Source: Thermoplasmatota archaeon
GTDB lineage: Archaea; Thermoplasmatota; Penumbrarchaeia; Penumbrarchaeales; Penumbrarchaeaceae
Length of the DNA: 64,000 nt
Direction: 5' to 3'
NCBI GenBank assembly: GCA_965234725.1
Contig: CBDDUX010000026.1
Coordinates: 26,371 to 90,370, forward strand
The translations under genes were made by a program, and so were the position numbers. Of the stretch, positions 5,031-41,158 are shown one piece after another. Within the stretch, counting starts at the first letter, position 1. The number at the start of each line of letters is the position of its first letter. The notes under the pieces were generated by a model. It was not told the origin of the DNA and did not search any database. It saw nothing but the letters and a program-made list of their open reading frames with translations.

Positions 5031-5078
5031 CAGATAATAACCAATAAATATGCCCCCTATTAATTGTGAAGCGTTCTT

Positions 5079-9141: not shown

Positions 9142-9190
9142 AGGACATGTCGCCTTTTCATTTTTCCGATTGTTTTTTCTATTTATCCCT

Positions 9191-11383: not shown

Positions 11384-11607
11384 AATCTTTTCGTTTACCT
11401 TGTTTCGATTCAAAAAACCAACTCCTATCTCTCCCATCGGAGGTACAGCGATTACACTAGTGACTGGATACTTAATACTTTGCAGAATAATGTTTTCAAA
11501 CTTATCTATGGTCAGGTTCAGAATCTGATAACTTTCATAATAATTTCTCAAATTTCAGAGGTTGCACTCGGAAAACAACATTAGCTAATAAGACCATCAT
11601 CAGGCGG

Positions 11608-12546
11608 ATGGCCGATATTGGAATAGAAAAAATCGGAGATGGTCCGATCATCTCGGTAATCATACCTGTCCGCAACGGCGAAAAAACCCTCGAAAGATGC
11701 CTGAGATCCATTATGGACCAATCCATCACGGGGTACGAGATCATAGTTGTTGATAATGCATCCGATGATTCCACATCAGACCTGATACATGCATGTTCAT
11801 CGGAGGATCATAGAATTCGTTACGAGTTCGAGGGCAGGAAAGGAAGGGGTCATGCAAGAGCAAAAGGGATCTCATGCTCCAATGGGAGTATTCTTGCTTG
11901 GACAGATTCGGATTGTGAGGTTCCACATGATTGGCTGGAAAGGCTAACCGGCCCAATATTGAGGGGAGAGGAAAAGATCGTCCAAGGAAACGAGGACCAG
12001 ATGAGAGGCGGTTATTGGTCCAGTGAAGCTCAGGATGCAGGACAGAGGCATTTGGACAATCAGGTTCGGAATCCCCCATATATTGATCATGTGGATACGA
12101 AGAACTTAGCAATCAGAAAGGACGTTCTTCTCGGCGTAGGGGGATTTGATAGAAGGCTGAAAGCGCTTGAGGACTTCGAACTCAAGGTCAGATTAAAAAA
12201 GGCCGGTAACCGGATTTTTTACATTAGGGATATTCGAGTTAAACACCACCACAGAGAAAAGTTAGGACAGCTCTTTCGATCCAGATTTGAGCAGGGATAC
12301 TGGGCTGCGGTTATCTTCTACATGCATAGAGACTTCTTCGATTCGGAAAAAGGGCAGGATAATACAATCAAATCCATGTATTTTCTGGACATTATCAAAT
12401 TCCCATTGCATCTTGGTTTATTCCTTATGCGCAAAGGACCGAGAAAGTTTCTTTTCGAGGCGGTATCGGGTCTTATCTGGAGATTGGGTAATATAAAGGG
12501 AAGAATTTTCCATAGAAAAGCTCTGGAGGAAATTCGATTTGCATAA
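11608..12546 (+). CDS. Glycosyltransferase family 2
   Basis: ISVIIPVRNGE...VVDNASDD...TDSDC GT-A/GT2 motifs. Confidence 0.7.
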   Translation: MADIGIEKIGDGPIISVIIPVRNGEKTLERCLRSIMDQSITGYEIIVVDNASDDSTSDLIHACSSEDHRIRYEFEGRKGRGHARAKGISCSNGSILAWTDSDCEVPHDWLERLTGPILRGEEKIVQGNEDQMRGGYWSSEAQDAGQRHLDNQVRNPPYIDHVDTKNLAIRKDVLLGVGGFDRRLKALEDFELKVRLKKAGNRIFYIRDIRVKHHHREKLGQLFRSRFEQGYWAAVIFYMHRDFFDSEKGQDNTIKSMYFLDIIKFPLHLGLFLMRKGPRKFLFEAVSGLIWRLGNIKGRIFHRKALEEIRFA

Positions 12547-13549
12547 ATCGGTCCTTGTCACACTTGCGAATGTTAATTTCCTTGAACAGGCCAAACAGCT
12601 CTTTTCCAGTGCATATCACAATTCCGGTTGGAACGGAGATTTTCTTCTTCTCTCATACGATATTCCGGAAGACAAGCTTCTCTGGTTTAAAAAGTACGGA
12701 ATCGAGGTGTTCCAATGTAAACCCATTGTGCAGGATAAGATAGGTATTTGGCATCCATCCGTAATGTCCAAATTCCATCTCTTCACAGAGATGGTAACAA
12801 AATGGGACCGAGTCGTTTTTCTCGATGCCGATGTCACCGTGGAAGCATTCCTCGGTGAGCTCGGGTCACCAGAGTCCTTCCATGCCGTTGAAGATGTTCA
12901 TCATATTCCTGTAAGGAATCAATTCATCGAAAGGAGATCTGTTTCAGGAGATCCGAAAAAAAGGGAATTGATTACGAGGTTGGAACGGGATTTTGATATG
13001 GACCTGCTGTCTTTCAACTCCGGTATCTTTTCATTTTCCACCAATGTGATAAAGGATGATACGTTCCAAGTCCTTGTGGAACTTTTCAGGGAATATCGTA
13101 CTGTATTGAGATTCCCCGAGCAGGCAATATTGAACCTTTATTTCTCAGGAAATTGGTCTCAACTTCCCCTGGTCTATAATAATTATTATACCAGGATCAG
13201 ACGTCCATGGAGATTCGGTACAGAGATTTTCAACGGGATATGCAACCATTTCATTTTTGAGAAACCCTGGATAGTCAAGGACGAGTATTTCTATTCCAAA
13301 TGGAAGAAAAACCTGGAGATGTCTTCTTCGATTGACCTTGGAAAAAGGAAGACTCCTGCCAGAATCTGGACCGAAGAGGAAATATTATATAAAACAAAAA
13401 TGATAGAAAAACTGATGGTCCAGAGGCCATTGATGACCCGGATCGGTAATGGTGTGTTGATGAGTCTGGAAAGAGCTGCAGGTCTGGCGGGAAAGGTAGT
13501 TGAAAATGCTACACCGACCCTGTATGAAAGGATTAAAAGAGGAAGTTGA
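12539..13549 (+). CDS. GT-A fold glycosyltransferase (GT8-like), paralog A
   Basis: N-terminus TLANVNFLEQAKQLFSSAYHNSGWNGDF and DAD motif (VVFLDADVTV); tandem paralog of next gene. Confidence 0.55.
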   Translation: MHKSVLVTLANVNFLEQAKQLFSSAYHNSGWNGDFLLLSYDIPEDKLLWFKKYGIEVFQCKPIVQDKIGIWHPSVMSKFHLFTEMVTKWDRVVFLDADVTVEAFLGELGSPESFHAVEDVHHIPVRNQFIERRSVSGDPKKRELITRLERDFDMDLLSFNSGIFSFSTNVIKDDTFQVLVELFREYRTVLRFPEQAILNLYFSGNWSQLPLVYNNYYTRIRRPWRFGTEIFNGICNHFIFEKPWIVKDEYFYSKWKKNLEMSSSIDLGKRKTPARIWTEEEILYKTKMIEKLMVQRPLMTRIGNGVLMSLERAAGLAGKVVENATPTLYERIKRGS

Positions 13550-13563
13550 TCGGGCGATGTTAA

Positions 13564-14583
13564 ATGGCAGGTAATCTAGTTGTAACTCTTGCTGACGGCA
13601 ATTACTTCGACCAGGCAAGACAGCTTCTCTCATCCGTCTATCACAATTCCGGATGGAGGGGTGATTATATGGTCCTCGCCAAACATATGGAGATAGAACA
13701 GATAAAATGGTTCAATGAGAAGGGCATAATCGTAAAGGAGATAGAGGATATAGGAAAATGGGAACTTCCGAACCATCCGAGAACCGTTCTTGCTAAATTT
13801 CATCTATTCAATGATGACATGGACAGTTGGAAAAGGATAATCTATCTGGACGCAGATATAACTGTAACCGCGAGTCTAGATCATTTACTGGATCTCAGGG
13901 GTTTTTGGGCTGCTGTGGATTTCCATGAAATGAAGCTCAAGGGACAATTTAAGATCTCCGGGGAGGATGATTTTGGAGATAAGGAAAAGAGGACCCATGA
14001 CCTCTTGTCTTCTCAATACGATCTTGATAGGGTTTCCTTCAATTCGGGAGTAATGGCATTTGATGGAAGTATGACCGGGCAGGAGCAATATGATCGCCTG
14101 ATCGAACTCTATCATGAATACGAATCCATAACCCTTCATGACCAGAGCATTCTCAATCTTCTTTTCTACGAACGATGGAACAGACTTCCACTGGCTTTCA
14201 ACAATTACTTTCTATATGGCAGGAAATCAGGATCGATACGGTTTGTTAAATGTGACGGAATAGTAAATCACTACATCCTTGACAGAGTTTGGAAGACAGA
14301 AAGCAGGGATCACTTCCCCGTCTGGAAGAGGAATCTGGATATGAGTGAGGGTATCAATTTGGAGAGAAGACCACCCCCTGCGGATGTTTGGGATGAGCTC
14401 AGGATCAAGGACGTCTCAGACAAATTGGAAAGTAGCACAATAAGGAATGAAACCATCACTGGAAAGCTGCTTATGGCAGGCACTGCATTAGATCGGGTTA
14501 TAGGAAGAATGGGTCTGATGATCAAGAAGAGGAATCCAAAACTCTACAGAATGATCCATGGAGAGGAGACCGGTGATCAGTGA
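13564..14583 (+). CDS. GT-A fold glycosyltransferase (GT8-like), paralog B
   Basis: Same architecture and conserved blocks as the 12539-13549 product (TLADGNYFDQARQLLSSVYHNSGWRGDY, YLDADITV). Confidence 0.55.
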   Translation: MAGNLVVTLADGNYFDQARQLLSSVYHNSGWRGDYMVLAKHMEIEQIKWFNEKGIIVKEIEDIGKWELPNHPRTVLAKFHLFNDDMDSWKRIIYLDADITVTASLDHLLDLRGFWAAVDFHEMKLKGQFKISGEDDFGDKEKRTHDLLSSQYDLDRVSFNSGVMAFDGSMTGQEQYDRLIELYHEYESITLHDQSILNLLFYERWNRLPLAFNNYFLYGRKSGSIRFVKCDGIVNHYILDRVWKTESRDHFPVWKRNLDMSEGINLERRPPPADVWDELRIKDVSDKLESSTIRNETITGKLLMAGTALDRVIGRMGLMIKKRNPKLYRMIHGEETGDQ

Positions 14584-14692
14584 TTATCTACGCAGGACCG
14601 TATTCAAACTTACTGAGTCCAGTTATTCAAAAAATTTTTCAATTGTCTGAAAACATCAGCAGTATTAAATATCCTTCCCTCGGTGAACTTCC

Positions 14693-15451
14693 GTGAAGAA
14701 TGTTCGATTATTCATGGAACAGAGTATGACCTTGGCAGTCATGGGATTCAAACTCAGAAATGAAGGAAGTTATCTCGGGATCATATGGTATCTTCTTAAC
14801 CCTCTTCTGATGTTCCTTCTTCTCCTTGTGATCTTCTCCAACAATATTGGAGGGGACATCGAACAATATCCGATTTATCTGCTTACCGGTATAATTATGG
14901 TGAATTTTTTCCTTGCAGCAACCTCTGAATCAACAAAGATAATAAGAGCAAACAAGGGAACTATAAGGTCCATACATTACAATCGGGAATCGCTTATCGG
15001 ATCCATAGTCCTTGTCGCGATATTTTCACATCTTTTCGAGCTCGTCATGTTGGCTATTGTCATGTTGGTGTTCGGGATCTCACCTTGGGGTGCCGCCATC
15101 TATCTGCTCGTCCTTCTGGTTTTCAGTCTTTTTACCCTGGGTGTTTGCTTGATCCTTTCATCCATTGCCGTATATTTCATGGACCTTGACAATATATGGT
15201 CATTTGCATCAAAGTTGCTCTGGTTCGCGACGCCTATCTTCTATTCCACATCCGGTAAAGATGGTTTGAGTGTTGTGATATTGTTCAATCCGCTTTACCA
15301 TTTTCTTACCATTGCCAGGAGCTTAATTATTTACCATGAGACACCCTCTTTGTTACTGGTTGCGGGGGCCCTCGGATCAACTGCTGTAATATTGCCGATA
15401 GGTCTGCTCCTTTTCGGTAGGTTCCAGAAGAAATTCGCGGAGATGATCTAA
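14693..15451 (+). CDS. ABC-2 type polysaccharide exporter permease (Wzm/TagG-like)
   Basis: Six predicted TM helices; immediately upstream of, and overlapping, the ATPase gene (TAATG). GTG start. Confidence 0.7.
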   Translation: MKNVRLFMEQSMTLAVMGFKLRNEGSYLGIIWYLLNPLLMFLLLLVIFSNNIGGDIEQYPIYLLTGIIMVNFFLAATSESTKIIRANKGTIRSIHYNRESLIGSIVLVAIFSHLFELVMLAIVMLVFGISPWGAAIYLLVLLVFSLFTLGVCLILSSIAVYFMDLDNIWSFASKLLWFATPIFYSTSGKDGLSVVILFNPLYHFLTIARSLIIYHETPSLLLVAGALGSTAVILPIGLLLFGRFQKKFAEMI

Positions 15452-16185
15452 TGGTATACATTGAAACCCGGGACCTGAAAAAGGATTTTAAAATAGGTTT
15501 CTTGAAGAATCGGGGTGCTCTTTCGAGGACGCTATCTATATTTTCCGGTAAGGAACCGACGAAAAAGCTCAGGGTCCTGGATGGTATATCCTTCAGATTG
15601 GAAGGGGGTGAGATTATGGGGATCATCGGAAAGAACGGGGCCGGTAAGAGTACGTTCATAAGGGTCCTTTCAGGTATCTATCCCAGAACAGGCGGGGAAA
15701 TTGAGGTTGACGGAAACATTGTTCCGATCGTGGGTCTGGGATATGGTTTTCAGGACAGGCTTTCCATGAGGGACAATGTATTCCTTACCTGCTCACTTCT
15801 CGGATTGAGAAGAAATGAGATCCGGCAGAAGTTCTCTTCGATCGTGGAGTTTGCCGAACTCCAGGATTTCGTGATAACAAAACTCTATCAGTTCTCAGAT
15901 GGAATGAAGCATCGTCTCGCATTCTCCGTTGCGATCCACTGTATGCCGGACCTGTTGCTCTTGGATGAAGTATTCGAGATCGGAGACCAGGGATTCAGGG
16001 CAAAATCATCGAAGAAGATAAAGGAACTTGCCCGAAATGGGTCAGGTGTAATTTTGGTGAGCCATGAGTTAAAGATGATAGAGAAGCACTGCAGGAAAGT
16101 TCTGTGGCTGGAGAAGGGGAAGGTCAAGATGATGGGGGAGACCAAAGAAGTTTTAAAACTCTATCGTGAGGCTTTCCCATCTTGA
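15451..16185 (+). CDS. ABC transporter ATP-binding protein (Wzt/TagH/KpsT-like)
   Basis: Walker A GKNGAGKST, signature FSDGMKHRLAF, Walker B LLLDEV. Confidence 0.85.
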   Translation: MVYIETRDLKKDFKIGFLKNRGALSRTLSIFSGKEPTKKLRVLDGISFRLEGGEIMGIIGKNGAGKSTFIRVLSGIYPRTGGEIEVDGNIVPIVGLGYGFQDRLSMRDNVFLTCSLLGLRRNEIRQKFSSIVEFAELQDFVITKLYQFSDGMKHRLAFSVAIHCMPDLLLLDEVFEIGDQGFRAKSSKKIKELARNGSGVILVSHELKMIEKHCRKVLWLEKGKVKMMGETKEVLKLYREAFPS

Positions 16186-17270
16186 ATAGCATTTTCGATG
16201 ATATTTCTGATCTTTATTATATATCTGGATGTATCGAACTCGCTTGCTCGTCTGATACATTCATCTTTGAATTCTTCCGGGTGTTCCCCGATCTCCTTTA
16301 CCGCGCTAGATAACTTTTGGGCATCAATATCGTTTATCAATCTTCCTGTGATTCCATCGATTATGCTTTCTTTGTATCCCCCTTCATTTGGTGCTATCAC
16401 AGGCTTTCCGGAAGCCATGGCCTCCACCGGTGTCATACCAAAATCCTCATCCTTAGATGTGGTGATAAACCCTTTGCAGTTCGAATATAGATCTAAAAGC
16501 TCATTCTGTGGGACCCATTTGAGTATCTCAACATTATCTGGTTTCAAACCCTCGATATAATTCGCATACTGCTGGAAATGTTTTGATTTCTCGTAGCATC
16601 CCACAACGATCAGTTTTTCCTCTGGCATCTTTGAGAATGACTTCATCTGGATATCAACTCTCTTGTGACTTATCAAACGGTTGACGGAAAGCCAGTAATC
16701 TCCGCAGCTCTTGTAGCTGAACCTGGATGTTTCGATAGGGGGATAGATCACTTCCCCCTCCCGTCCCAGATATCTTTTCAGTCTGGAGCAGGTATTTTTT
16801 GAATTGCATGCCAGATTCTGGACATGTTTAAAATATTTCCTATTTAGATGTCTGTTGAGATTGACCCAGAGATCGAATACCGGACGTTGCAGGGGGTGAA
16901 TATTGTTCTGCCTGGTGTACTCGTAAAGATCCCAGATCTCCCTTATCGGCGAATGGACGTACCATAGGTTGGGTTTATTCTTTACAGCTCCGGACATTGC
17001 CCAATCCCCGTCCATTATGTAAAAATCGTATTTATCCTTGAGATCGAGCCTTCTGAACCGGAGTAATGCCATTTGCTGTCTGAAGGGAGCGTTAATCGGT
17101 ACCTTCCCTATGGATATCATGTTCAGATCCTTGAATCCCATTTTTTCTATCTTTTCAATGTCGATATTGGTGGAATAGAAATCAGCTTTCAGCTCTCTAG
17201 AAAGTGTAAGTCCCACCACCTCCGCACCACCTATATTATCCATGTAATTATGAAAAATTGCAACTTTCAT
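16161..17270 (-). CDS. Glycosyltransferase family 4 (GT-B fold)
   Basis: C-terminal E-x7-E region (EDFGMTPVEAMASGKPVIA) typical of GT4. Confidence 0.75.
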   Translation of the reverse strand: MKVAIFHNYMDNIGGAEVVGLTLSRELKADFYSTNIDIEKIEKMGFKDLNMISIGKVPINAPFRQQMALLRFRRLDLKDKYDFYIMDGDWAMSGAVKNKPNLWYVHSPIREIWDLYEYTRQNNIHPLQRPVFDLWVNLNRHLNRKYFKHVQNLACNSKNTCSRLKRYLGREGEVIYPPIETSRFSYKSCGDYWLSVNRLISHKRVDIQMKSFSKMPEEKLIVVGCYEKSKHFQQYANYIEGLKPDNVEILKWVPQNELLDLYSNCKGFITTSKDEDFGMTPVEAMASGKPVIAPNEGGYKESIIDGITGRLINDIDAQKLSSAVKEIGEHPEEFKDECIRRASEFDTSRYIIKIRNIIENAIQDGKASR

Positions 17271-17447
17271 CAGAACTCACCCAGATCGATCTATGCCAGA
17301 GGGCAGATTACACCGATATCGATGGAATGTTGAGCCAGATAATTAATCTATTCCATGGAAATTTTCAAATACTATCCATTCTGAGTATGTAGTTGATGAT
17401 CATCAATTACATAATCAGTGGAAATTTCCTTAAAAAGGTTAGATATA

Positions 17448-17459
17448 TTTTTATAAATA
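17448..17459 (+). promoter_or_regulatory. TATA-box-like element upstream of GT2 gene
   Basis: tttttataaata in the divergent intergenic region between the GT4 (-) and GT2 (+) genes. Confidence 0.3.
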
Positions 17460-17538
17460 TCTCGACTTCTTCTGGTATTATTAATCCAGAGAACGGCTAT
17501 CAATTACAGCCCTCATACCAGGCGAATGGGAAGATATC

Positions 17539-18402
17539 ATGAAAGGTGTGGAAGTCCCCAAAATATCGGTGATCATTCCGGTCAGGAATCGTGAAATAAA
17601 ACTCTCAAGATGTCTTGAAAGTGTCCTTGATCAAACCTTCGGCGATTATGAGGTGATAGTTGTCGATAACGCTTCAACAGACGGAACAAGATCAGTAATA
17701 GAAAAGTTCGCTAGAAAGGATCCTAAAGTGAAATATGTATACGAATCGGTTCTCGGTATTGGCAGCGCTAGGTACAAGGGAGAAATATCATCCAAAGGAG
17801 AAGTCATTCTAATGACCGACAGTGACTGTGAAGTCCCTCCTGATTGGATAGAGCGGATGTCAGCACCTGTACTTGGAGGGAAAATTCCAGCAGTGCAAGG
17901 GTTGAAGCATGCGATAGGCAATCATTATTGGCCTCTGCAGGTGGAACAGGATGAACATAGATTTATGCGGTCATTCTTTGAGCGCACCGGGACTAGTACG
18001 GTAGATACCGCTAATTTCTGTATTGACAGAAAGGTTCTCGAAAAGGTTGGATATACGGATAAAACCATCAATAACCTTAACGACACAGAGCTGGCTGCAA
18101 GGCTAATTCAAAATGGATACACGATCGCACTCTTGGAGACAAGTGTTGGCCATCACTATCCAATTTCGCCGTTTAAACTTGCGAGAATTCCATTCCATAG
18201 AGGGTCTGTTCATTCAATTTTAAGTAGAAGGTACCCCGGGAATCCCTTATTCGGGAAGCAGACATTCAAACTTTTTTTCGATTATCTCCTCGGTCTGATA
18301 TCCGAGGTTTTTAAAATGGAAAAGACTTTTCCCTATGATCTGGTTACTGGAATATCGTGGAGGTTAGGACTTCTATGGGGATACCTAAGAAAACCAAGGT
18401 GA
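17539..18402 (+). CDS. Glycosyltransferase family 2
   Basis: ISVIIPVRNRE...VVDNASTDGT...TDSDC motifs; TATA-like element upstream. Confidence 0.7.
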   Translation: MKGVEVPKISVIIPVRNREIKLSRCLESVLDQTFGDYEVIVVDNASTDGTRSVIEKFARKDPKVKYVYESVLGIGSARYKGEISSKGEVILMTDSDCEVPPDWIERMSAPVLGGKIPAVQGLKHAIGNHYWPLQVEQDEHRFMRSFFERTGTSTVDTANFCIDRKVLEKVGYTDKTINNLNDTELAARLIQNGYTIALLETSVGHHYPISPFKLARIPFHRGSVHSILSRRYPGNPLFGKQTFKLFFDYLLGLISEVFKMEKTFPYDLVTGISWRLGLLWGYLRKPR

Positions 18403-19295
18403 AGGTGTCCGTCGTGATATCTGTTTGGAATAGTGCAAAGACGATTGAGCGATGTCTTACAAGCATTCTCCATCAATCATTCTCTGATTTTGAAATATTG
18501 GTCATCGACGGCAATTCAACTGACGAGACAAAAAAGATCATTGATGAAATCCGGAAAAAATCTCCGAAGGTTCGGTATTTCCACGAGGAATTTCCTTCTA
18601 AAGCCGCTTCATTCAACCGAGGTATTATGGAATCTGAAGCAGAATTAATAATGATTACAAATGCTGATTGCGAGGTTCCAAGAGATTGGATTTCAAGAAT
18701 GATGAAACCATTAACTGCAGGGGAAGATATTGTCCAGGGTGGAAAAAATTTAGCTTCTAAGGGATTCTGGTCAAGAATGCAACAAAAATCCGATGAAAGG
18801 TTCGTTGCGGATAATTCAAGCGATAATTATTCTTTCAACATTGATATGGAAAACATCGCTTTCAGAAGGAGCGTTCTCCTCGATGTTGGTTTATTCAACA
18901 GACATATCAGGAACTTGGAGAATTTTGATATGAGACTTCGATTAATAAAATATGGTTATCGAATATATTTATTAGAAGATATCAGGGTCATTCACCATCA
19001 AAAGAGTAACTTTATAGAACTTTTAAAAAAGATGAGTAGAATGGGCAAATGGACATATTTCATATACTGGATGAACCGGGATGGCATTAGGACAAATGAA
19101 AAAAAATTGTTTAAATCACTCGGACTGTCAAGTTTCCCGTTTTTGATACCACGGACTCTTTTAATATTAATTCGCCATGGAATTTCGGCTTTCATCTATG
19201 AACTAATTTCAGGTACTGCATGGAGTATCGGCGTGCTTAGCGGATTCATCAGGAAAGAGCGTTTCCTCAAATCTATTAAGGCCAATTATTATTGA
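18375..19295 (+). CDS. Glycosyltransferase family 2
   Basis: VSVVISVWNS...LVIDGNSTDET...TNADC motifs; start placed at internal Met to limit overlap with the upstream GT2. Confidence 0.65.
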   Translation: MGIPKKTKVKVSVVISVWNSAKTIERCLTSILHQSFSDFEILVIDGNSTDETKKIIDEIRKKSPKVRYFHEEFPSKAASFNRGIMESEAELIMITNADCEVPRDWISRMMKPLTAGEDIVQGGKNLASKGFWSRMQQKSDERFVADNSSDNYSFNIDMENIAFRRSVLLDVGLFNRHIRNLENFDMRLRLIKYGYRIYLLEDIRVIHHQKSNFIELLKKMSRMGKWTYFIYWMNRDGIRTNEKKLFKSLGLSSFPFLIPRTLLILIRHGISAFIYELISGTAWSIGVLSGFIRKERFLKSIKANYY

Positions 19296-19303
19296 GGTGT
19301 TAT

Positions 19304-20368
19304 ATGATTACATTCACGGAAGAAGTTCTGGAGAACTTAAGGCTCAATGAAAAAGAATTAAGCGAAAGAAAAACAACGCTTGATTCATACCCGATCAAGA
19401 TATATGTTGAGCCCACACAGCGTTGCAACCTAGACTGCTGGATGTGCGACTGGGAAAGAAGAAGATTGAAAGAAGACATGGACATACAACTTTTTAATAA
19501 AATCGAGAAAGAGCTTTTCAGCCATGTAGCTGAAGTTGATTTCTTTCTCAACGGTGAACCTCTCCTTTCTAAAAACTTCCCGGAAATGATCAAATCCTCC
19601 CAGCGTTATTCGTTTTTACCAAAGATATTTACAAATGGTTTGATGCTTGACGAGAAAAAGATGGATCTACTGGCAAGCAACGGTGTCTTTGTCAACATCT
19701 CCTTCGATGGGGCTACTGAAAGCATATATGACAGTGTAAGGGGGAAAGGAAATTTTAGAAGGATCATCCCTAAAATTAAGCAATTATTAGAGATAGGTCG
19801 AGAGATCTCAAATGATCGGTTTCATGTAAGATTGGCTGTGACCTTAGGTATCCATAACATACAGGAAGCGCCAAAAATAATCAGACTTGCCCGGGAGCTA
19901 GGGGTTGATGATGTCATGTTTGGTGCTCTCGATTATGGAATTTATTTTGAGCAGCATCTGACCTCGGATCCTGCAAAAACCGAATTCTTTTTGAAACTCG
20001 CTAAGAAAGAGGCAGATGATTCATCAATAAGGTTCTCGTGCCCGAGAAAGATTGGACCCGTTCTAATTAAAGATCATCATAATTGGGACGACTTCACATT
20101 GGACATAGATAAGTATGCCCCTTTTTCTCTTGAGGCGAATAATCCCTATGGTGGTCAATGTGGTTACCCCTGGGTAGAATCGGTTATCCGTTCTGACGGG
20201 AAGGTTGTAAGTTGCTGTCAGAAGCATCATAATATGGGAGATATCACAAAAAACACTTTTCGGGAGATATGGAACAATAATGAATACATACGTCTCAGGA
20301 ACCAAAATAATTACAACGTATGCCTTGGAGTCAATTGCAACATGACCAGGTACTCCATATGGAAATGA
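19304..20368 (+). CDS. Radical SAM enzyme with C-terminal SPASM-like Cys cluster
   Basis: CNLDCWMC (CxxxCxxC) near N-terminus; C-terminal CGYPW...VSCCQ...C..C cluster; embedded in glycan cluster. Confidence 0.65.
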   Translation: MITFTEEVLENLRLNEKELSERKTTLDSYPIKIYVEPTQRCNLDCWMCDWERRRLKEDMDIQLFNKIEKELFSHVAEVDFFLNGEPLLSKNFPEMIKSSQRYSFLPKIFTNGLMLDEKKMDLLASNGVFVNISFDGATESIYDSVRGKGNFRRIIPKIKQLLEIGREISNDRFHVRLAVTLGIHNIQEAPKIIRLARELGVDDVMFGALDYGIYFEQHLTSDPAKTEFFLKLAKKEADDSSIRFSCPRKIGPVLIKDHHNWDDFTLDIDKYAPFSLEANNPYGGQCGYPWVESVIRSDGKVVSCCQKHHNMGDITKNTFREIWNNNEYIRLRNQNNYNVCLGVNCNMTRYSIWK

Positions 20369-20415
20369 TATTGGCAAGAGACGTAATAGGAAAATCTGAA
20401 TTAATGTCCAAAAGA

Positions 20416-21165
20416 TTACCCCTCAGGAGGTCCTGAATACAGCTTACCAGAATCCGAAAGGGAGACCTTGACATATCTGCCCTTCTTGATCAATGATACA
20501 TATCCCTCCTTTTCAAGGGACCTCAAAACCCTGCTGAGGTAGGCCCTCTTCCTGGCGAGATAGGCCCTCTTTGATTCTCCCTCCCGTATCTCGGTGAAGA
20601 AACCCTTCGATCCCTCCATTGGTTGTATGAGAGCGCCCTCGTGCCTTACACTTCCACCCAAGGACCCCAGGACCTTCAGAAGCTCCTGTCCTGCCGGACT
20701 GGGTCCGATTATCCTGACAGATGGTATCTCCATAACGGATGATACACCGATGGAGAGGACCTCCTGGTCATGGGGTATGGAATATTCCTCGGGTCTAACA
20801 TAATAGGGATGTGATCCGGTCATGAAGCATGATAGAAGGGCCGCTGAGGTGATTATCCTGTTACCCGTGGAGAGGTTGACATATACCTCGAACCCATCGG
20901 ATATCAAACCATTGAACAGGGATGTCAACATCCTGGAAGATGTGTAGAAATCGAATATGTCCAGTGTCATCTCCTCTATGTCAATGGTAGCCGAGACCTT
21001 TTCCTTTATCCTGTCCCCATTCCTTCTTGCCCTCTGCTCGATATCCGATCCCTCATTGCTTCCGTAGATCAGTATGGCCCTGTTGGTGGGAAAGAACTTC
21101 AAGCCCCCAAGGACCCTGTCTATCTCCAGACCCATCGGTATGACGTGGACGGTTCTCTTCTCCAT
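20416..21165 (-). CDS. Csa3-like transcriptional regulator (CARF-type Rossmann-like ligand domain + C-terminal winged HTH)
   Basis: IPMGLEIDRVLGGL and VYVNLSTGNRIITSAALL blocks mirror the two conserved Csa3/CARF motifs; C-terminal KRAYLSRVLRSLEKEGYVSLIKKGRYVKVSLSDSG wHTH. Alternative start at 21270. Confidence 0.5.
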   Translation of the reverse strand: MEKRTVHVIPMGLEIDRVLGGLKFFPTNRAILIYGSNEGSDIEQRARRNGDRIKEKVSATIDIEEMTLDIFDFYTSSRMLTSLFNGLISDGFEVYVNLSTGNRIITSAALLSCFMTGSHPYYVRPEEYSIPHDQEVLSIGVSSVMEIPSVRIIGPSPAGQELLKVLGSLGGSVRHEGALIQPMEGSKGFFTEIREGESKRAYLARKRAYLSRVLRSLEKEGYVSLIKKGRYVKVSLSDSGKLYSGPPEG

Positions 21166-21356
21166 GCTATACGATATTGACGTATAGAGATATCTATTTT
21201 CGTATAGATCAAAAGTCAACTCATCTATACACTCATGGAACCTCCGATACGTAGGACCATTTAAATCCAAACGCGACCATTCAAGCTTTTGCTGTCAGGG
21301 ATGGGGGCAGCTACGGGGAAGGACCATCTCGTCTGTTTATCCGGGAATGATCTTGC

Positions 21357-23213
21357 ATGGTGGAAGCATTGGCCGTCAACGATGAAGGGGACCCAGTTTA
21401 TCAGGGAATGCATTCCGATATCATTCAGTCCATGGACAAGAAGATGGACATTCTAGCCCTCGTCCCCTCGGTCGGTTCCCTGGCCAGGAGCTTCATCGGA
21501 AAGACCTTTTTAGAGGCCAGAAGGAGGAGGAAGAAACCGATATTCCTGACCTCCTCCCATGATGCATCATGGATACATTCTGCTATTATGGAAGCAAGGG
21601 GTGTGGACCGCGGGAGGGAAGGCATCGTCTCCATAGGAAAGGATGTGATGTCCTGCATGGAATTCGATTCCAGGATAGATCCGGGCGACATGATCAACCA
21701 CTGCTTCAGGAAAGGGACGATCGAGACATGTCCGTTCCAGTCCGGTTTCGATCTCGATATCTACAGGGACCTCAAACGGAGCGGAGGCGCCCTTCTCCAT
21801 GACATGACAGAAGAGATGAGGCAGAATGGAATGTGTCCGGCCAGGACAGCACTGGATCTCGTTGTCGAAGCTGAGGCTGTTGTGGCCCACCCATCGTTCC
21901 TTTTCACTGAGGACTGGAAAGGTGTCATGGAACTTTTGGAAAGGGATGGAAGCGGTTGCATCCTTGTGATACATGACCCGGCCTATCTGGTAGAGTTCCT
22001 TGATAACAGGTTCTCCTACGAGTTCACATCTGATGACCTAACCAAAGATAAATGGACCATAGAAGGCCTGACCGTTGAGGAACAATCCGGTCTATATCTC
22101 CTGGTTGAGCTTCTATCGGAATTAGCTGCCAGGACAGATCCCATGAAGCAGATCGAGAGAAGCCTTCTCATACAGAATCACAGGGACAGGGCGCTGGTCA
22201 ATGGAAGTGCCGGACTAGTTGCTGTTATCTCTGCTTTGAAACGCGTCCTTGAGACCGGGATCCAGGGTAGTATCTCTCGAAGGAGGAGTATTAAGGACCT
22301 CTACATGTTCCTCAAACTTTGGATGGGCCAGTATACTGGAGTGTCAAGGGCCAGGAGGGAGTCTGAGGATGGTGACAGTGTCGAGGTCTCTCTGGTGGAT
22401 ATTTCGTTGATGACCCAGCCTATCCTCCAGACGTTCTCCACTGTAATACTGTTCGGAGATACGCTCTATCCCCATTCGATATACAGTTACACACTTGGTA
22501 TGAGGTCCGAGAGGATCATGAACAGAACATATATTGACAGATCGACAATGGATGGCACCCATGTCATTTCCATAGGGAATGTTGACATCTCCTATAAGCA
22601 CAGGTCAGAGGCCTCCTATGCAAGGGTGGTGGAGGGTCTCTCCAGAATATGTGAGACCACTCCGGGACTCAAGATCGCCGTCTTCCCCTCATATTACATC
22701 CTGGAGCAGGTAATGGGATCCATGGCTGAGAACGTCTTTGGCTACCCGGTGATAGATGAGACTAGGGGGATGTCAAAGGAAGCAAGGGGACATCTGCTTA
22801 CAGAGGTAAAGACCGGTGGGGACATACTTGCACTTACTGTTCAGGGAAGCTTCCTTGTGAGGTCCGTGGAGGATGGTTCCATCAGTCCTGATGCAGTGAT
22901 ATTGGTAGGGCTCCACATACCTCCTCCCGATGCTGGATCCACACAGAAGAAGGTTCACCTCCAGAAGAAGTACACACCCAATATCGGGCACATCATTACT
23001 GTCTTGATGCCTGCGATAACAAAGGTCTTGAGGATGGTCAATACCATGATGTCCTCGGACATGGACCGAAGGAACATGGTGATCCTGATGGACCGTAGAT
23101 ATCAGGACCGCAGGGTCCTTGAATGCCTTCCGAGGTTCTACGATATCAAGCTCCTTTCTTCTCCAGGAGAGTTCGACGGAAGCAGGATCCTTGAGGGAGG
23201 TGATGGTGGTTGA
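21357..23213 (+). CDS. XPD/Rad3-family (SF2, Fe-S) helicase paralog with degenerate catalytic motifs
   Basis: Walker A ARSFIGKT, 4-Cys Fe-S insertion, CPARTALDLVVEAEAVVAHPSFLF (matches XPD post-Fe-S block), motif II DEAH replaced by HDPAY, motif V/HD2 block ILALTVQGSFLVRSVEDG...VILVGLHIPPPD, motif VI arginines absent. Confidence 0.65.
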   Translation: MVEALAVNDEGDPVYQGMHSDIIQSMDKKMDILALVPSVGSLARSFIGKTFLEARRRRKKPIFLTSSHDASWIHSAIMEARGVDRGREGIVSIGKDVMSCMEFDSRIDPGDMINHCFRKGTIETCPFQSGFDLDIYRDLKRSGGALLHDMTEEMRQNGMCPARTALDLVVEAEAVVAHPSFLFTEDWKGVMELLERDGSGCILVIHDPAYLVEFLDNRFSYEFTSDDLTKDKWTIEGLTVEEQSGLYLLVELLSELAARTDPMKQIERSLLIQNHRDRALVNGSAGLVAVISALKRVLETGIQGSISRRRSIKDLYMFLKLWMGQYTGVSRARRESEDGDSVEVSLVDISLMTQPILQTFSTVILFGDTLYPHSIYSYTLGMRSERIMNRTYIDRSTMDGTHVISIGNVDISYKHRSEASYARVVEGLSRICETTPGLKIAVFPSYYILEQVMGSMAENVFGYPVIDETRGMSKEARGHLLTEVKTGGDILALTVQGSFLVRSVEDGSISPDAVILVGLHIPPPDAGSTQKKVHLQKKYTPNIGHIITVLMPAITKVLRMVNTMMSSDMDRRNMVILMDRRYQDRRVLECLPRFYDIKLLSSPGEFDGSRILEGGDGG

Positions 23214-23983
23214 GGTTCTGTGTGCTAGGTTCTTCTTCATCGGGAAACTCCACCCTTGTCACCCACAAGGACACGACCATTCTCATAGATGCTGGACTTC
23301 CTCTCCGCTATACCGTAGAAAATATAATATCCATCACAGGAAAGGATTCTCTGGATGGCATATTCATAAGCCACGAACACTCCGACCATACAAGGAGCCT
23401 TAAACCGCTTGCTCAGAGATACGGATGTCCTGTCTTCCTTTCCCCTCCGGTATCGTGGTATATCGGTCCCGGGGAGGGTATGGACATCAGGAAGGTCAGG
23501 GACGGATGGAAGGTGGGGGTCGGACCACTGATGATAACTCCTTTCATAGTATCCCATGATGCCATAGATCCGTACGGGTTCATCATTGAGGACGAATACG
23601 GTTCCATGGGTCTTGTAACAGACCTTGGATGCTATGACGATAACATTTGCGACAGATTGAGGAACAGGGATGCACTCGTTGTGGAATCGAATTATGATCT
23701 GGACATGCTCGTGAACGGAAGGTATCCCCATTACCTGAAGAAGCGGATCCAGGATGGCAAAGGCCATCTATCGAACCAACAGTGCAGGGACCTTCTCGAG
23801 AACATAGTAGGGCCGAGGACCCGTGATATTGTCCTTGCACACCTTTCCGAGGAGAACAACGATCCCCTCCTTGCAATGGAAACTTCTCTTGAGGTCCTTG
23901 AATGCATGGAGTCGCCACCTTCGCTCCATGTATCCTATCCAAAGCATCCCACATCTGTCCTCGATCTATCCCGGACACCCTGA
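23210..23983 (+). CDS. MBL-fold metallo-hydrolase (YycJ/PhnP-like)
   Basis: HEHSDH (HxHxDH), downstream SHD, D and H ligands; TTG start overlaps upstream stop (TTGA). Confidence 0.75.
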   Translation: MRFCVLGSSSSGNSTLVTHKDTTILIDAGLPLRYTVENIISITGKDSLDGIFISHEHSDHTRSLKPLAQRYGCPVFLSPPVSWYIGPGEGMDIRKVRDGWKVGVGPLMITPFIVSHDAIDPYGFIIEDEYGSMGLVTDLGCYDDNICDRLRNRDALVVESNYDLDMLVNGRYPHYLKKRIQDGKGHLSNQQCRDLLENIVGPRTRDIVLAHLSEENNDPLLAMETSLEVLECMESPPSLHVSYPKHPTSVLDLSRTP

Positions 23984-27024: not shown

Positions 27025-29064
27025 TCATGCCAACCTGAAATGCTCTCCACAGAAGGGACATTCCCCCTTCTGTGCGACCTTTTCAGTAAGGTTCCTGTTG
27101 CATCCGGGACAGAGGTAGATGGTGACCTCTTTCTCCCCTGTGCTGAACATCTCTCCGCAGTGAGGACAGACGGACGATCCAAGTTCCTCTTCTGAGAGTA
27201 TCCCGCTGCAGTGCGGGCAGTGATATTCAACGGATCCTTCATCTTCCATTCTTGAGAGTCTTTTTTTCTCCTCTTCCAGTTCATCCTTCATCTTCTTGAG
27301 GTTCTCCTGGGCCTTCTTGATCGATGCAGACCTCTGATCCAGGTCCTTTCTCTCTGACCCAAGCCCATCCTTTGTGGAATCGAGTTCGTTCTTGTATACA
27401 TCGAGGTCTCTTCTATTTGCTTCAAGCTCTAGCCTGATGTTCGAGATCTCCTTCCTTTCATCCTCAAGCTTGGACCTATCGTCTTCCAGCTTCAACAATT
27501 CAGCGGAGGATTCCTCGATCTCCTTTCTGGCTGCAGCGATCTCCTCCTGTTCTACCGTGAGGTTCTGTTGGAACTGTTTCAGGGATTCACCGTACTGTTT
27601 CCACTTATCGGCATCCAGTTTCAACTGTTCTTCCCAGGTTTTTAACTCTACCTCTTTGCTTTCAAGTGACTTCTCCATGTCTGTCGGGTCCTTGGCTTGT
27701 TCGATGGTTCCAGGAGTAGCTTCCAGTTTCGCTTTAAGGCTCACGTTCTCCTCCTGAAGCTTGACGATCATGGCCTCAAGGTTCTCGGAATTGTGCCTTA
27801 CTTTGCGGAGCTCTTCTTCCAGGAGGCTTGATCTGACCAGCTCTTCCTGCTTATCGTCTTCATTTTCGGTCTTTGCGGAATTTTCCAGCTCCTTTTTAGC
27901 CGCTTCGAACTCCTGTTGGACCTTGTTGAACTCTTCTTGTTCCTTGGTCAGGTCCTGCTGGTACTGTTTGAGGGACTCTCCATACTGTCTCCATTTTTCT
28001 GCACTTTCCTCGATCTGGGCCTCCCTCTGGGTAAGTTCCATCTCACGCTCTTCAAGGGCGGCGGTGTCAACCTTTTCCTCCTCACCACCGGTTTCCTGGG
28101 CTTGTTTCAACTGTGAGTTCTGCTCCTGAAGTTTCATCACAGCCTCCTGGAGCTTCTCAAGGGTGGCATCCTTCTTGTTGATCTCCTCTCTGAGTGACTC
28201 GATCTCTATTGATGTGGATGATCCAGGTGGAACAGATGAGGATCCCTTTTCATCGAACTCACTTCTTTGTCTTTCGAATTCTTCTTTTACCCTGTTGAAC
28301 TCTTCTTGCTGTTGGGTGAGGTCCTGATGATAGTTTTTGAGGGTCTCACCGTATTCCTTCCATCTTGTGGCCTTTTCCTCAAGCTCGGCCTCTCTGGAAG
28401 CCAGGACGGATGCCATCTCTCTGAGTGATGCATCTTCTTCATTGCTTTCCTTGGGGTTTTCCTTTTCTTTCAACTCCCTGTTCAGTTCCTGGAGCTTTAC
28501 AACTGCTTCCTGGAGTTTGATGACTGTTGCCTTTGATCCCTCAAGCTCCTCCCTCAGAGCATCTATCTCTCCGCTATCCACAGAATTATCCTTCACACCT
28601 TCTGTCCCACTTTCTGGTCCCAGGGTCTTGGACCTTTCATATTCTTCTCTTTCCTTGTTGAACTCTTCCTGCTGTTGGGTGAGGTCCTGATGATAGTTCT
28701 TGAGGGTCTCACCGTATTCCTTCCATTTCTCAGCGTTTGTTTCGACCTCTCTCTCCTTTCCCAGAAGCTCCTCCTCTCTTGAGGCCAGCTCCTTGGAAGC
28801 GGTCTGATACTGGTCTCCTGTTTCCTTGAGTTTCAGATTGTATTCCTCAAGTTCCTTCCGATAGTTCTCGAGGTCGACCCTCGCCTTCTCGATCTCCTTT
28901 TCCCTCTCGGAAAGGGATGACTTCATCTCATTGATCTCCAGTAGTCTCTCCCGCAATTTCGCCTTCATCGGATCAATGTCCGCGGCTTTATCGGTCGTTT
29001 TCTCATCATTACTGCTGGCATTTGCCTCGGGCATATGATTCACTCCATTCCTTAAATTGACCAA
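27025..29064 (-). CDS. Long coiled-coil protein with C-terminal double zinc ribbon
   Basis: E/K/Q-rich heptad sequence with four internal about 100-aa repeats (KWKEYGETLKNYHQDLTQQQEEFN); C-terminus CPHC...CPHC...CPGC...CPFC. Confidence 0.6.
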   Translation of the reverse strand: MVNLRNGVNHMPEANASSNDEKTTDKAADIDPMKAKLRERLLEINEMKSSLSEREKEIEKARVDLENYRKELEEYNLKLKETGDQYQTASKELASREEELLGKEREVETNAEKWKEYGETLKNYHQDLTQQQEEFNKEREEYERSKTLGPESGTEGVKDNSVDSGEIDALREELEGSKATVIKLQEAVVKLQELNRELKEKENPKESNEEDASLREMASVLASREAELEEKATRWKEYGETLKNYHQDLTQQQEEFNRVKEEFERQRSEFDEKGSSSVPPGSSTSIEIESLREEINKKDATLEKLQEAVMKLQEQNSQLKQAQETGGEEEKVDTAALEEREMELTQREAQIEESAEKWRQYGESLKQYQQDLTKEQEEFNKVQQEFEAAKKELENSAKTENEDDKQEELVRSSLLEEELRKVRHNSENLEAMIVKLQEENVSLKAKLEATPGTIEQAKDPTDMEKSLESKEVELKTWEEQLKLDADKWKQYGESLKQFQQNLTVEQEEIAAARKEIEESSAELLKLEDDRSKLEDERKEISNIRLELEANRRDLDVYKNELDSTKDGLGSERKDLDQRSASIKKAQENLKKMKDELEEEKKRLSRMEDEGSVEYHCPHCSGILSEEELGSSVCPHCGEMFSTGEKEVTIYLCPGCNRNLTEKVAQKGECPFCGEHFRLA
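28293..28364. repeat. Intragenic 72-nt repeat copy 1 (coiled-coil module)
   Basis: 72 nt, 70/72 identical to 28656-28727; encodes the EYGETLKNYHQDLTQQQEEFN module on the minus strand. Confidence 0.8.
28656..28727. repeat. Intragenic 72-nt repeat copy 2 (coiled-coil module)
   Basis: Near-identical to 28293-28364; more diverged copies at approx 27921-27992 and 27570-27620. Confidence 0.8.
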
Positions 29065-29105
29065 GCCTCACTGTGCAAGGTCCTATATCTTTTTCACTTC
29101 ATTTT

Positions 29106-31385
29106 CTAGGTCCCTTCCTTTTGGGAGGGTCCATCGTCAAGATCTCCATTGGAAGTTATCTCCTTTGGATCTGAATGTTTTTTCATTGTTACCTTGAATT
29201 CCTTTAATTTCTTCTGGATGCGCTCCCATTTCTCCTTGAGTGAGGCTTCTCTTTCATTCAATGAGGCCTCTTTACCCTGCAGGGAACTTTCCCAGCTCTC
29301 AAGGAAACCCTTCTGACCATCCAGCTGTTCCTTTCTACCTTCAATTTCAATATTTGAGGCCTCAAGGAGCTTCTTGTATTCCTCGAGTCTTTTGGAATAA
29401 TCCTCCCAATCCTTCTTGACCTTTTCAAGCTCAGCGGCTTTTTCAACAATCTTGTTCTCTTTAAGAACAAGTTCCTCCTTGAAGGTATCCGATTCCTGTT
29501 TTTCAGAGGCTAAATTTGCCCTGGTCGAATCAAGTTTGGAACTTTGCTCAGCTAAGTCCTTCTCAGCTGATGCGATCTCTTTCTCCCTTTTGTCAAGGTT
29601 CTCTTCTTTGGGCCTGATGACATTTTCCCTCTCCTCCAGTTCCCTTCCCTTCTCCTCCAGTTCCCCTGATCTCTCCTCTGCCTTTTCCTTTATTGATGTC
29701 AATTCAGTGGAAAGTTTTTCCAAAGATGAGGTCTGCTCATTGAGCTCGATCTCCTTTTTTTCCGCATTCTCTTCTCTTTTCTTCATAACAAGGTCCAAAC
29801 GGTCCAATTCTTTTTTCCGCTTGGAAAGATCCTTTTCTCTCTCGGATATTCCATTTTCCCTCTCATCAAGTTCTGCAGAATGGTCCACAAGTGACCTTTC
29901 GGTCTCCTCGATCTCCTGGGTCCTTTTTTCAAGGTCCTCCTCTTTTTCTTTAATGATCACCAAATTATCTCTGATACTGGACCGATCCTCTTCGAGTTTC
30001 TCTTCGATTTCCTTGATACGTTGTTCCTTCTCTGAGAATTTAACCACCCTTTTTCCAAGGTCCGCTTCCGCAGCAGCGAGATCGTTCACATTCTGCTTCT
30101 GTTTCTCATCTCTCAAATCAAGTTCGTTTGAACGGTTCTGTAATGAATCCTCTCTATTCTTGATATCATTTTGAAGTGCCTTCAACTCTTCTTCCTTTTT
30201 CTCAAGGGAAGAAAAGATCTCATCCAATTCCCTGGACCTTGTATCAAGGGCTGCGCTTCGGGAATCTACATCCTCCAGCTTCTTCCTCCATTCTCTCCTC
30301 TCTGCCACTATGTGCTCTTTTTCGATCCTTGCTGAACCGATCAATGAATCGAGTTCCTCTTCCTTTCCCTTGAGGACCGATGTCAATTCCTCATTCTGTT
30401 CGAGGTTCTTCTTCGAGATGTTGAGTTCTATTTCCTTTTCGTTCAGGGATGCCTGTCTTTCATTCAGATCATTCTCCCTCTCATCCAGGTTCCTGAACCG
30501 ATCGAGTATGTCCTTTGATCCCTCTCTTTTCCTTTCGAGTTCCTCTGAATCATGGGAGATCTCAAGAGCCTTTTCCTCAAGTTCTCCTCTGTATCTCTCA
30601 AGTTCCTCTCTGAACTTGAGATTTGATTCCCTGTCCTCTTCCATCTCTTTTTTAAGAGTGTTGACCTTTTCTCTCTCTTCATCCATTTCGGCGTTGAGCC
30701 TCCGGATCTCATCTTCCTTTTCCTCCAGAAGGTCCGCGGCCTGGTGATCGTTCATGGAAGTCCCAGAGACCATTTTCAGTTCTTTGGAAAGCTCCTGGTT
30801 CTTGGTATTGAGGTCGGAGATTATCTCTGCCTGGTTTTCGATCCTCAGTTTTAGTTCGTTCAATTCCTTGATATGCCTCTGGTGGATCTCCTCTGAGCCA
30901 TCTGTTTTGCTGGTTGAAGTTGCTTCCCTTGCTTCCTTGAGGTCACTCTGGAGCTCTATCATCTTCTTTTTAAGGTTCTCGTTTTCTTCCATCAATTTAT
31001 TAAATGAGGCAGGGTCGACCTCCATTTCCTTGATCTGGTTCTGTTTCTTTATGATCGATCGAAGCTGTCTGTTTATTGATCCATAGATCTTGATCTCCTC
31101 ATCCCTGTCCTTCCCATCATTTAGCTCTTTCAGGTCTTCTTCCTTGGATCGAAGGTCTTGAGATATGGCATCAAGTAGTGCAAGTGTCTCTTTGTCATCA
31201 GAACCTTTCTCAACGGAACGCTTCCTTGCATCCCCTTCCAATACGCTGGAATCAGGCATGACAGTGAATATACCCTGGCATTTCATGCAGCTATATGCCT
31301 TGGGACCCGTGGATACTTCTGCCCAGAGCTTTGACTTGCAGAAGGGGCAGGTGAAGATCTTTCTGTTCGAACCTTTAATATCCAA
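29106..31385 (-). CDS. Long coiled-coil protein with N-terminal zinc ribbon
   Basis: N-terminal CPFC...C..C ribbon, then 700 aa of E/K/L/R heptad coiled coil; same strand and adjacent to the 27025-29064 gene. Confidence 0.6.
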   Translation of the reverse strand: MDIKGSNRKIFTCPFCKSKLWAEVSTGPKAYSCMKCQGIFTVMPDSSVLEGDARKRSVEKGSDDKETLALLDAISQDLRSKEEDLKELNDGKDRDEEIKIYGSINRQLRSIIKKQNQIKEMEVDPASFNKLMEENENLKKKMIELQSDLKEAREATSTSKTDGSEEIHQRHIKELNELKLRIENQAEIISDLNTKNQELSKELKMVSGTSMNDHQAADLLEEKEDEIRRLNAEMDEEREKVNTLKKEMEEDRESNLKFREELERYRGELEEKALEISHDSEELERKREGSKDILDRFRNLDERENDLNERQASLNEKEIELNISKKNLEQNEELTSVLKGKEEELDSLIGSARIEKEHIVAERREWRKKLEDVDSRSAALDTRSRELDEIFSSLEKKEEELKALQNDIKNREDSLQNRSNELDLRDEKQKQNVNDLAAAEADLGKRVVKFSEKEQRIKEIEEKLEEDRSSIRDNLVIIKEKEEDLEKRTQEIEETERSLVDHSAELDERENGISEREKDLSKRKKELDRLDLVMKKREENAEKKEIELNEQTSSLEKLSTELTSIKEKAEERSGELEEKGRELEERENVIRPKEENLDKREKEIASAEKDLAEQSSKLDSTRANLASEKQESDTFKEELVLKENKIVEKAAELEKVKKDWEDYSKRLEEYKKLLEASNIEIEGRKEQLDGQKGFLESWESSLQGKEASLNEREASLKEKWERIQKKLKEFKVTMKKHSDPKEITSNGDLDDGPSQKEGT

Positions 31386-41146: not shown

Positions 41147-41158
41147 GGAGGTGAACCC

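Follow-up and report, generated by a model that had tools for sequence, protein, structure and literature searches.

We describe here a regulator gene, called REG in the following, in a 64-kb stretch of DNA (the window) from a Thermoplasmatota archaeon (GenBank assembly GCA_965234725.1, contig CBDDUX010000026.1, positions 26,371 to 90,370). REG lies on the minus strand, next to two plus-strand genes for an XPD-like protein and a metallo-beta-lactamase (MBL)-fold hydrolase. We consider it moderately likely, on sequence and model evidence, that REG encodes a CRISPR-independent autorepressor built from a CARF domain and a winged helix-turn-helix (wHTH), which may be modulated by a ligand and possibly gates the divergent operon. 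Autoregulation through a defined inverted repeat is the best-supported mechanism. As a finding, REG is mostly re-annotation: the family of REG is already catalogued, one of its members has been characterised, and the distance from CRISPR loci is expected.

The gene model had to be revised. A minus-strand open reading frame (ORF) at 20416..21270, reported in a first-pass annotation of this DNA, is present in the ORF listing with 284 codons and a TTG start. Its proposed start at 21270 was not upheld. An identical public protein (P0001, 100% identity) has 249 amino acids (aa) and begins at M36 of the ORF. In 36 homologues, mostly 243-262 aa long, the starts lie within a few residues of M36; exceptions are P0005, called at 274 aa with an extension that is not conserved, and a few sequences that are truncated. 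We therefore let the coding sequence (CDS) begin at M36 (Table 1). The 105 nt upstream, formerly read as codons 1-35, carry a conserved TATA box and operator-like repeats and are best understood as regulatory DNA, not as codons. With the start at M36 the divergent intergenic region extends over 191 bp (21166-21356), instead of the 86 bp (21271-21356) originally proposed.

Domain models and fold prediction agree on the architecture of the protein. Pfam HFX_2341_N (PF19810) matches REG with 76.3 bits (cut-off 30, E 3.5e-21) over residues 41-163 of the 284-aa ORF, corresponding to profile positions 2-120 of 120, and DUF6293_C (PF22665) with 35.4 bits (cut-off 27, E 1.5e-08). Weak MarR and HTH_27 matches are also found in the C-terminal part. 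PADLOC models named 'CARF3--CARF', a label that we take to follow the CARF classification, match over the full length (best E 2.9e-32). An AlphaFold2 (AF2) model built on 21 orthologues has a predicted local distance difference test score (pLDDT) of 89.5 and a predicted template-modelling score of 0.81. Its C-terminal part comprises helices 157-168, 176-184 and 199-220 and a beta hairpin at 223-236, and together with the DUF6293_C match this bears out the C-terminal winged helix that had been predicted. A 21-nt tandem duplication within REG (20530-20571) encodes a repeated heptad, KRAYLAR/KRAYLSR, that maps to helix 199-220 and is visible in orthologues too. In Foldseek searches of the PDB, Csa3 of S. 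solfataricus (Csa3a, Sso1445; 2WTE, 6WXQ and 6W11, apo and cyclic tetra-adenylate (cA4)-bound) came first with the same domain order, followed by the CARF-wHTH ring nucleases Sis0811 and Sso1393 (Crn1) and then by Csm6, Can2 and Cam1. Nearly all of the top 50 PDB matches are CARF proteins, Cad1 included, with E values down to 1.4e-08.

The two CARF-like blocks claimed from the bare sequence are present as PMGLEIDR and NLSTGNR; as PMGLExDR and N-x-S-T-G-N-R they are invariant across 21 REG orthologues. CARF domains carry a signature [DN]-x-[ST]-x3-[RK] after strand 4 and a conserved loop after strand 1, and the segments N97-L-S99-T-G-N-R103 and P-M-G-L-E-x-D-R of REG satisfy both. G12 and N97 are conserved in at least 90% of 52 family-wide sequences. 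No part of REG is more conserved than the pocket motifs, within the clade and across the family, which argues for a working pocket. In Csa3 the motifs T-h-G-F-(N/D)-E-x4-R and L-x2-G-h-R touch cA4 (PMC8699464), and the two blocks of REG can be equated with them: REG has the equivalent G-h-E...R and L-x2-G-h-R motifs (PMC8699464).

We assign REG to a Thermoplasmatota orthologue group of the HFX_2341/DUF6293 family, and not to Csa3 proper, because both Csa3 models remain below their cut-offs (Pfam Csa3_N 20.7 bits against 27, TIGR01884 (cas_HTH) 24.7 against 60.2). The earlier description as 'Csa3-like' thus stands at the level of fold and superfamily, but not for Csa3 in the strict sense; likewise, the profile check proposed with it returned CARF matches (HFX_2341_N, CARF3) while the Csa3 models were sub-threshold. 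Homologues are named 'DUF6293 family protein' or 'HFX_2341 family transcriptional regulator' in their sources. An exhaustive profile search recovered 733 representative clusters at E<=1e-3, 314 at <=1e-10 and 8 at <=1e-30. Since just 8 of the 733 reach the strictest level, REG falls within a tight Thermoplasmatota subfamily of a broad archaeal family.

The characterised member of the family, HFX_2341 of Haloferax mediterranei, is a CRISPR-unlinked global repressor that was tied to Csa3a by HHpred; the nearest CRISPR array is 178 kb away, CRISPR-negative haloarchaea carry full-length homologues, and the phylogeny is vertical (PMC11434293). Over-expression of HFX_2341 represses cas genes (PMC11434293). 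REG is similar in that both its Pfam domains exceed the gathering thresholds and in that it does not stand beside CRISPR-cas and behaves as a vertically inherited core gene (PMC11434293). However, it is shorter (249 aa compared to 308 aa), belongs to a distinct Thermoplasmatota subfamily and has a lineage-specific divergent XPD-like/MBL operon and a candidate operator, which are absent from the Haloferax study. Its identity to the distant DUF6293 family members sampled, all of them other than the Haloferax protein, is ~21-29%. Compared to Csa3a, REG shares the top-ranking fold, the domain order, the pocket motifs and a target geometry of short inverted arms 8-9 bp apart beside a TATA box. It differs in that the PADLOC Csa3 model gives only 1e-5 on REG compared to 3e-32 for CARF3, in the low identity of 15%, and in the lack of cas genes or arrays nearby in the window.

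The Crn1 proteins (Sso2081, Sso1393, Sis0811) also share the CARF-plus-wHTH architecture and rank high in Foldseek, and the best sequence-level PDB match of REG is the ring nuclease Sso2081, albeit weak (E 0.04). Crn1 ring nucleases have a catalytic Lys in a GGRK loop and a Ser after strand 1. The N-terminal motif of REG is G-L-E, in contrast to the Ser-containing motif of Crn1 (the two motifs were compared unaligned). In a hidden Markov model alignment R103 of REG stands opposite the GGRK Lys of Sso2081, and Csa3 has an Arg there too (PMC8699464). A further difference from Crn1 is the conserved, operator-like inverted repeat found at the promoter of REG itself.

This repeat is part of an ordered control region. 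The comparison drew on 17 related genome loci, to which 5 metagenome loci were added, and 16 loci cover the region. Anchored on the nearly invariant GATTTAAA box (21259-21266), the 16 sequences align without gaps over ~105 nt, and the distance between this distal TTTAAA box and the REG ATG is 100-104 nt in all 16. The box lies ~90 nt from the ATG of the XPD-like gene and is most likely a promoter of the XPD-like/MBL operon, for which it is our candidate. Five ATACG/CGTAT half-sites have fixed positions at +15, +35, +59, +79 and +93 from it, arranged as two direct pairs with 20 bp spacing and one proximal inverted pair. S1 has a highly conserved TACGTA core, keeps its position in related loci and is the sole exact copy in the window. 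In S2, found at +59/+61 in most loci, ATAC never varies, and the G and AAA next to it reach at least 70-90% conservation among the 16 sequences. The proximal inverted pair reads KATAC-N9-GTATM. This pattern occurs a single time in the 64 kb, where 0.15 matches are expected, and a single copy is present in each of 8 related loci, invariably in the REG 5' region, 3-25 nt before the REG match or ATG, and at a fixed position relative to the distal TATA box. We infer that it is a candidate autoregulatory operator. Four of the five half-sites read GTATA in the genome studied here and GTATC in most orthologues, and this shared change favours one protein reading all half-sites over independent drift.

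A proximal TATA-like stretch is located ~22-34 nt upstream of the REG ATG and is a candidate promoter. The ATATAT-type stretch, ~22-30 nt from the ATG, is at the right distance for a leaderless archaeal transcript, and the REG mRNA is probably leaderless. RNAalifold on the 16 REG-sense sequences gave 0 pairs and hence no consensus RNA structure, which favours DNA operators. A structured RNA or leader was considered and rejected: the XPD sense yields a 3-bp stem only, and Rfam has no match in the window. Further copies of the operator motif, which might delineate a regulon, do not exceed chance within the window. The repeat geometry resembles that of the Csa3a CAPPa site, TCCC-N8-GGGA, which sits directly upstream of the BRE/TATA promoter elements (PMC8699464). 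On the other side of the distal box a conserved G-rich element falls in the presumed leader of the XPD-like gene, and RNAalifold gives for it the 3-bp stem, with -0.2 kcal/mol. A conserved small ORF starting from the ATG within GGGATGGGG was discarded on inspection by eye, its frames and lengths varying between loci.

Table 1. Coordinates of REG, its control region and the divergent operon in the window, and of distant family contexts in other loci (locus coordinates)
Feature	Position	Strand	Basis or remark
REG CDS	20416..21165	-	249 aa, HFX_2341/DUF6293 family; start at ORF M36 (21165)
CARF-type Rossmann-like domain	20776..21165	-	REG residues ~1-130; Pfam HFX_2341_N, Foldseek
CARF motif 1, PMGLEIDR	21115-21138	-	invariant in 21 orthologues
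CARF motif 2, NLSTGNR	20857-20877	-	invariant in 21 orthologues
C-terminal winged helix	20443..20730	-	Pfam DUF6293_C and AF2 model
In-frame 5' ORF extension, read as noncoding	21166..21270	-	belongs to the divergent control region, on the REG side
Inverted repeat TATAC-N9-GTATA (family pattern KATAC-N9-GTATM)	21168..21186		2 nt from the REG start codon
A+T-rich TATA-like stretch (ATATAT in most orthologues)	21187..21199	-	read from alignments
Half-site S2, ATACGAAA in REG orientation	21200..21208		nearly invariant across loci
Half-site S1b, GTAT[AC]	21224..21231		+35 from distal TATA box
Half-site S1, CTACGTATC in REG orientation	21246..21254		~7 bp from distal TATA box
Distal TATA box ATTTAAAT, often inside palindrome GATTTAAATC	21259..21266		most conserved intergenic block
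Conserved G-rich element, GGGATGGGGG in the window; other loci have GGGAATGGGGCC	21297..21311	+	between distal TATA box and XPD-like start
XPD-fold protein, degenerate ATPase motifs, four conserved Cys	21357..23213	+	Foldseek, PADLOC, alignments
MBL-fold hydrolase, intact HEHSDH metal motif	23210..23983	+	Pfam Lactamase_B, Lactamase_B_2, ~1e-13
Distant family members divergent to Multi_ubiq operons	L018 5312-6747; L020 3798-6732; L021 3137-6732; L023 3132-6750; L026 3994-6795

The ORF layout confirms that REG is oriented divergently to the XPD-like/MBL pair, as the first-pass annotation had it. The XPD-like protein has 618 aa (model pLDDT 72.8). Its best Foldseek match is XPD of T. acidophilum (1.8e-25, template-modelling score 0.70), and the PADLOC model typeIV_DinG matches at 1.8e-18. 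All orthologues lack a GKT Walker A motif, have xDPx instead of the DEAH box and are degenerate in motifs III, V and VI. In contrast, C100, C116, C125 and C160 are invariant at Fe-S domain positions. Because the ATPase motifs are degenerate and the four Cys are kept, we regard the protein as ATPase-dead and predict that it cannot be an ATP-driven helicase, while it is probably Fe-S-bearing. It shares the full-length fold and the four Fe-S-domain Cys with XPD/Rad3 and DinG (including CasDinG of type IV CRISPR), but has neither their intact ATPase motifs nor accompanying type IV cas genes. Members of the XPD-like family turned up in no lineage other than this Thermoplasmatota one, each followed by an MBL hydrolase. 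A search for a wider distribution by word index, plasmid tblastn and metagenome scan led back to the same lineage or to generic DinG helicases of ~23% identity. The MBL start overlaps the XPD-like stop by 4 nt, and the two genes overlap or abut in an operon. Against cyclic-nucleotide phosphodiesterase models the MBL protein is far sub-threshold (Apyc1 13.8 bits with a cut-off of 50, NF041851 E 0.007). A literature search for XPD together with MBL proteins in Thermoplasmatota returned nothing relevant.

The order REG, XPD-like gene, MBL gene and FG-GAP gene is kept in 15 of 15 genome loci with enough upstream sequence, in two further assemblies and in three of the five metagenome loci, the other two being cut upstream. 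The genes that come next 3' of REG are alike in 15 of 16 genome loci, namely an AsnC-type regulator immediately adjacent, (PfkB), GlnA, a MiaB-like radical SAM gene and one more gene; in the window they correspond to 14-5975. Because the flanks on both sides are syntenic, REG sits in a vertically inherited core block. Neighbourhood conservation was hence found wherever loci were long enough, but it does not discriminate, because the housekeeping genes on both sides (GlnA, AsnC-type, MiaB-like, FG-GAP) are equally syntenic. In the window a ~14.4-kb glycosylation island of lower GC content (0.39-0.45; 5976-20415) is inserted between the AsnC-type gene and REG. It encodes glycosyltransferases, an ABC exporter, an epimerase, a PKD-domain protein and a radical SAM/SPASM protein. 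In 15 of 16 related genome loci the AsnC-type gene directly neighbours REG; the closest relative (L001) has different cargo at this junction.

CARF domains are usually read as receivers of cyclic oligoadenylates (cOA) from type III CRISPR systems. Within the window, REG is associated neither with type III CRISPR-cas nor with any other source of cOA. No CRISPR-type repeat array was detected in the 64 kb, and no ORF of at least 150 aa in the window has a cas, Cas10, CD-NTase-type or cyclase Pfam match, in agreement with the earlier claim that CRISPR-cas is absent within this distance. What cannot be maintained is that an orphan CARF protein is surprising. The family is already annotated in Pfam and at NCBI and its Haloferax member is CRISPR-unlinked (PMC11434293), so that a CARF-wHTH regulator remote from CRISPR is the normal state of the HFX_2341 family and not an anomaly. 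PADLOC recognised no defence system in the block; it returned the generic typeIV_DinG fold match of the XPD-like protein, a sub-significant MBL match and coiled-coil matches to JetC and LmuB.

From these observations the following mechanism can be proposed. REG would act as a dimeric transcription factor resembling Csa3, in which a CARF-fold sensor at the N-terminus precedes a C-terminal winged helix. It would be a core gene of the chromosome, passed on vertically and without dependence on CRISPR-cas. The dimer is predicted to bind KATAC-N9-GTATM between the proximal TATA-like box and its own ATG and, once bound, would repress its own, probably leaderless, transcript. Three further half-sites, paired ~20 bp apart, reach to ~7 bp from the distal TTTAAA box, and via S1 and S1b REG could also gate the XPD-like protein and the MBL hydrolase. 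A small, probably nucleotide-derived ligand in the conserved CARF pocket may tune operator occupancy. The idea that REG acts on the divergent region, already put forward for the 86-bp interval, is strengthened by the phased half-sites and the inverted repeat, but these elements lie mostly in what had been taken for coding sequence, and the strongest is on REG's own promoter. Regulation of the dead-XPD/MBL operon by REG is plausible, and we propose it tentatively.

Several observations weigh against the wider parts of this proposal. Because the strongest element lies on the promoter of REG itself, only autoregulation is well grounded, and assigning the distal TATA box to a gene is guesswork. 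Synteny in the lineage spans the region all the way from the MiaB-like gene and GlnA through to the coiled-coil genes, and the adjacency of REG and the XPD-like gene may reflect inherited gene order only. Directly upstream of the nearest outgroup homologues (42% and 37% identity), an XPD-like gene is lacking. HFX_2341 regulates globally and not locally (PMC11434293), and Csa3a binds DNA in vitro non-specifically and independently of cA4 (PMC8699464). A synthase or cyclase for a ligand was found neither in the block nor in the window, a search for Cas10 and CD-NTases that covered 64 kb of the genome.

Some of these points lead to a different explanation, in which REG is a global regulator like HFX_2341 that autoregulates and has its other targets elsewhere, while the XPD-like/MBL operon is just a syntenic neighbour under independent control. 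The many genes, mainly nutrient transporters, that are de-repressed in the HFX_2341 deletion (PMC11434293) would fit, as would the syntenic block of more than 20 kb with GlnA and the AsnC-type regulator 3' of REG in 15 of 16 genome loci, the outgroup homologues without XPD-like neighbour and the position of the unique inverted repeat on the REG side. However, S1 and S1b are conserved like the proximal sites and abut the distal TATA box, a second inverted repeat or S1 copy does not occur in the 64-kb window to which the search was confined, and in five of eight distant family contexts a relative of REG is again paired divergently with a compact operon. We consider this explanation possible but rather unlikely. 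A more ambitious alternative makes REG, the XPD-like protein and the MBL hydrolase a dedicated signalling module: CARF would sense a nucleotide messenger produced upon DNA damage or infection, MBL would degrade the messenger or be a nuclease effector, and the dead XPD would be an Fe-S sensor of DNA lesions or ends. REG and the pair co-occur in all clade loci, the XPD-like family is clade-restricted and accompanied by REG wherever upstream sequence is present, and the metal motif of MBL is intact. Sulfolobus Csa3a activates DNA-repair genes, according to the passage of PMC11434293 that cites its references 20 and 21. Yet a cyclase or synthase is missing from block and window, the MBL protein stays far below the phosphodiesterase thresholds, PADLOC sees no defence system beyond the generic DinG-fold match, and the vertical core-genome behaviour of the block is unlike that of a defence island. 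This module appears improbable to us.

The CARF-like domain could finally be a ligand-free dimerisation scaffold, or REG could be a Crn1-type ring nuclease and not a transcription factor. The sequence match to Sso2081 (E 0.04), the shared architecture and high fold rank of Crn1 and the failure to find a ligand source point in this direction. Against it stand the pocket motifs, which are the most conserved part of REG in clade and family, the Arg at the position of the GGRK Lys of Sso2081, as in Csa3 (PMC8699464), and the combination of a wHTH with a conserved, cognate-looking inverted repeat, which points to DNA binding. We hold both variants to be very unlikely. The CRISPR-independent autorepressor, with possible gating of the divergent operon, is the reading that we prefer.

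The distant family members add a pattern to this reading. In five of the eight contexts sampled the regulator is divergent to an operon of Multi_ubiq, Prok-E2_E and ThiF (E1) genes (Table 1). These five belong to members of 21-29% identity, one of them from Nitrosopumilus adriaticus. A TIR_2 gene follows the operon in two, a Prok-JAB fusion occurs in one, and one adjoins AbiEi/AbiEii genes and an integrase. From this, local control of a compact cargo operon in divergent orientation seems to be frequent in the HFX_2341 family. Because such pairing recurs, the prior for the XPD-like/MBL operon as target of REG is modestly raised. The Multi_ubiq contexts are possibly a CARF-regulated module for ubiquitin-like conjugation; an incomplete search of the literature retrieved no paper linking CARF or Csa3 to ubiquitin-like operons. 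It is conceivable, though we would call it a long shot, that HFX_2341-family regulators constitute a CRISPR-independent second-messenger pathway of archaea, in which a nucleotide signal gates lineage-specific divergent cargo operons. The cargo would then be a dead Fe-S XPD-like protein with MBL in this clade and the Multi_ubiq-E2-E1 operon in those five contexts, and the module described here would represent a new type of ligand-gated response to DNA damage or conflict. In the HFX_2341 family, archaea retain highly conserved CARF pockets in regulators of the core genome that have no link to CRISPR. The Thermoplasmatota clade offers a compact test system, with candidate operators in a 191-bp region, a well-modelled 249-aa regulator and a two-gene candidate target.

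Other features of the window were also seen. Between 56600 and 60400 lie ~3.8 kb of low GC content (0.40) with no ORF of at least 150 aa and no Rfam or tRNA match. On the minus strand, 27025-31385 encodes two long coiled-coil proteins of extreme charge (679 and 759 aa) that are syntenic across the lineage; double zinc ribbons form the end of the first, and the matches of the two to JetC and LmuB models are weak and of coiled-coil type. The stretch 34412-47710 encodes two giant proteins side by side (2244 and 2183 aa), both with an archaeal type IV pilin N-terminus and CARDB domains, to which the first adds VWA and MAM-like domains. A DUF7289 gene follows the pair, and the region looks like a surface-structure locus.

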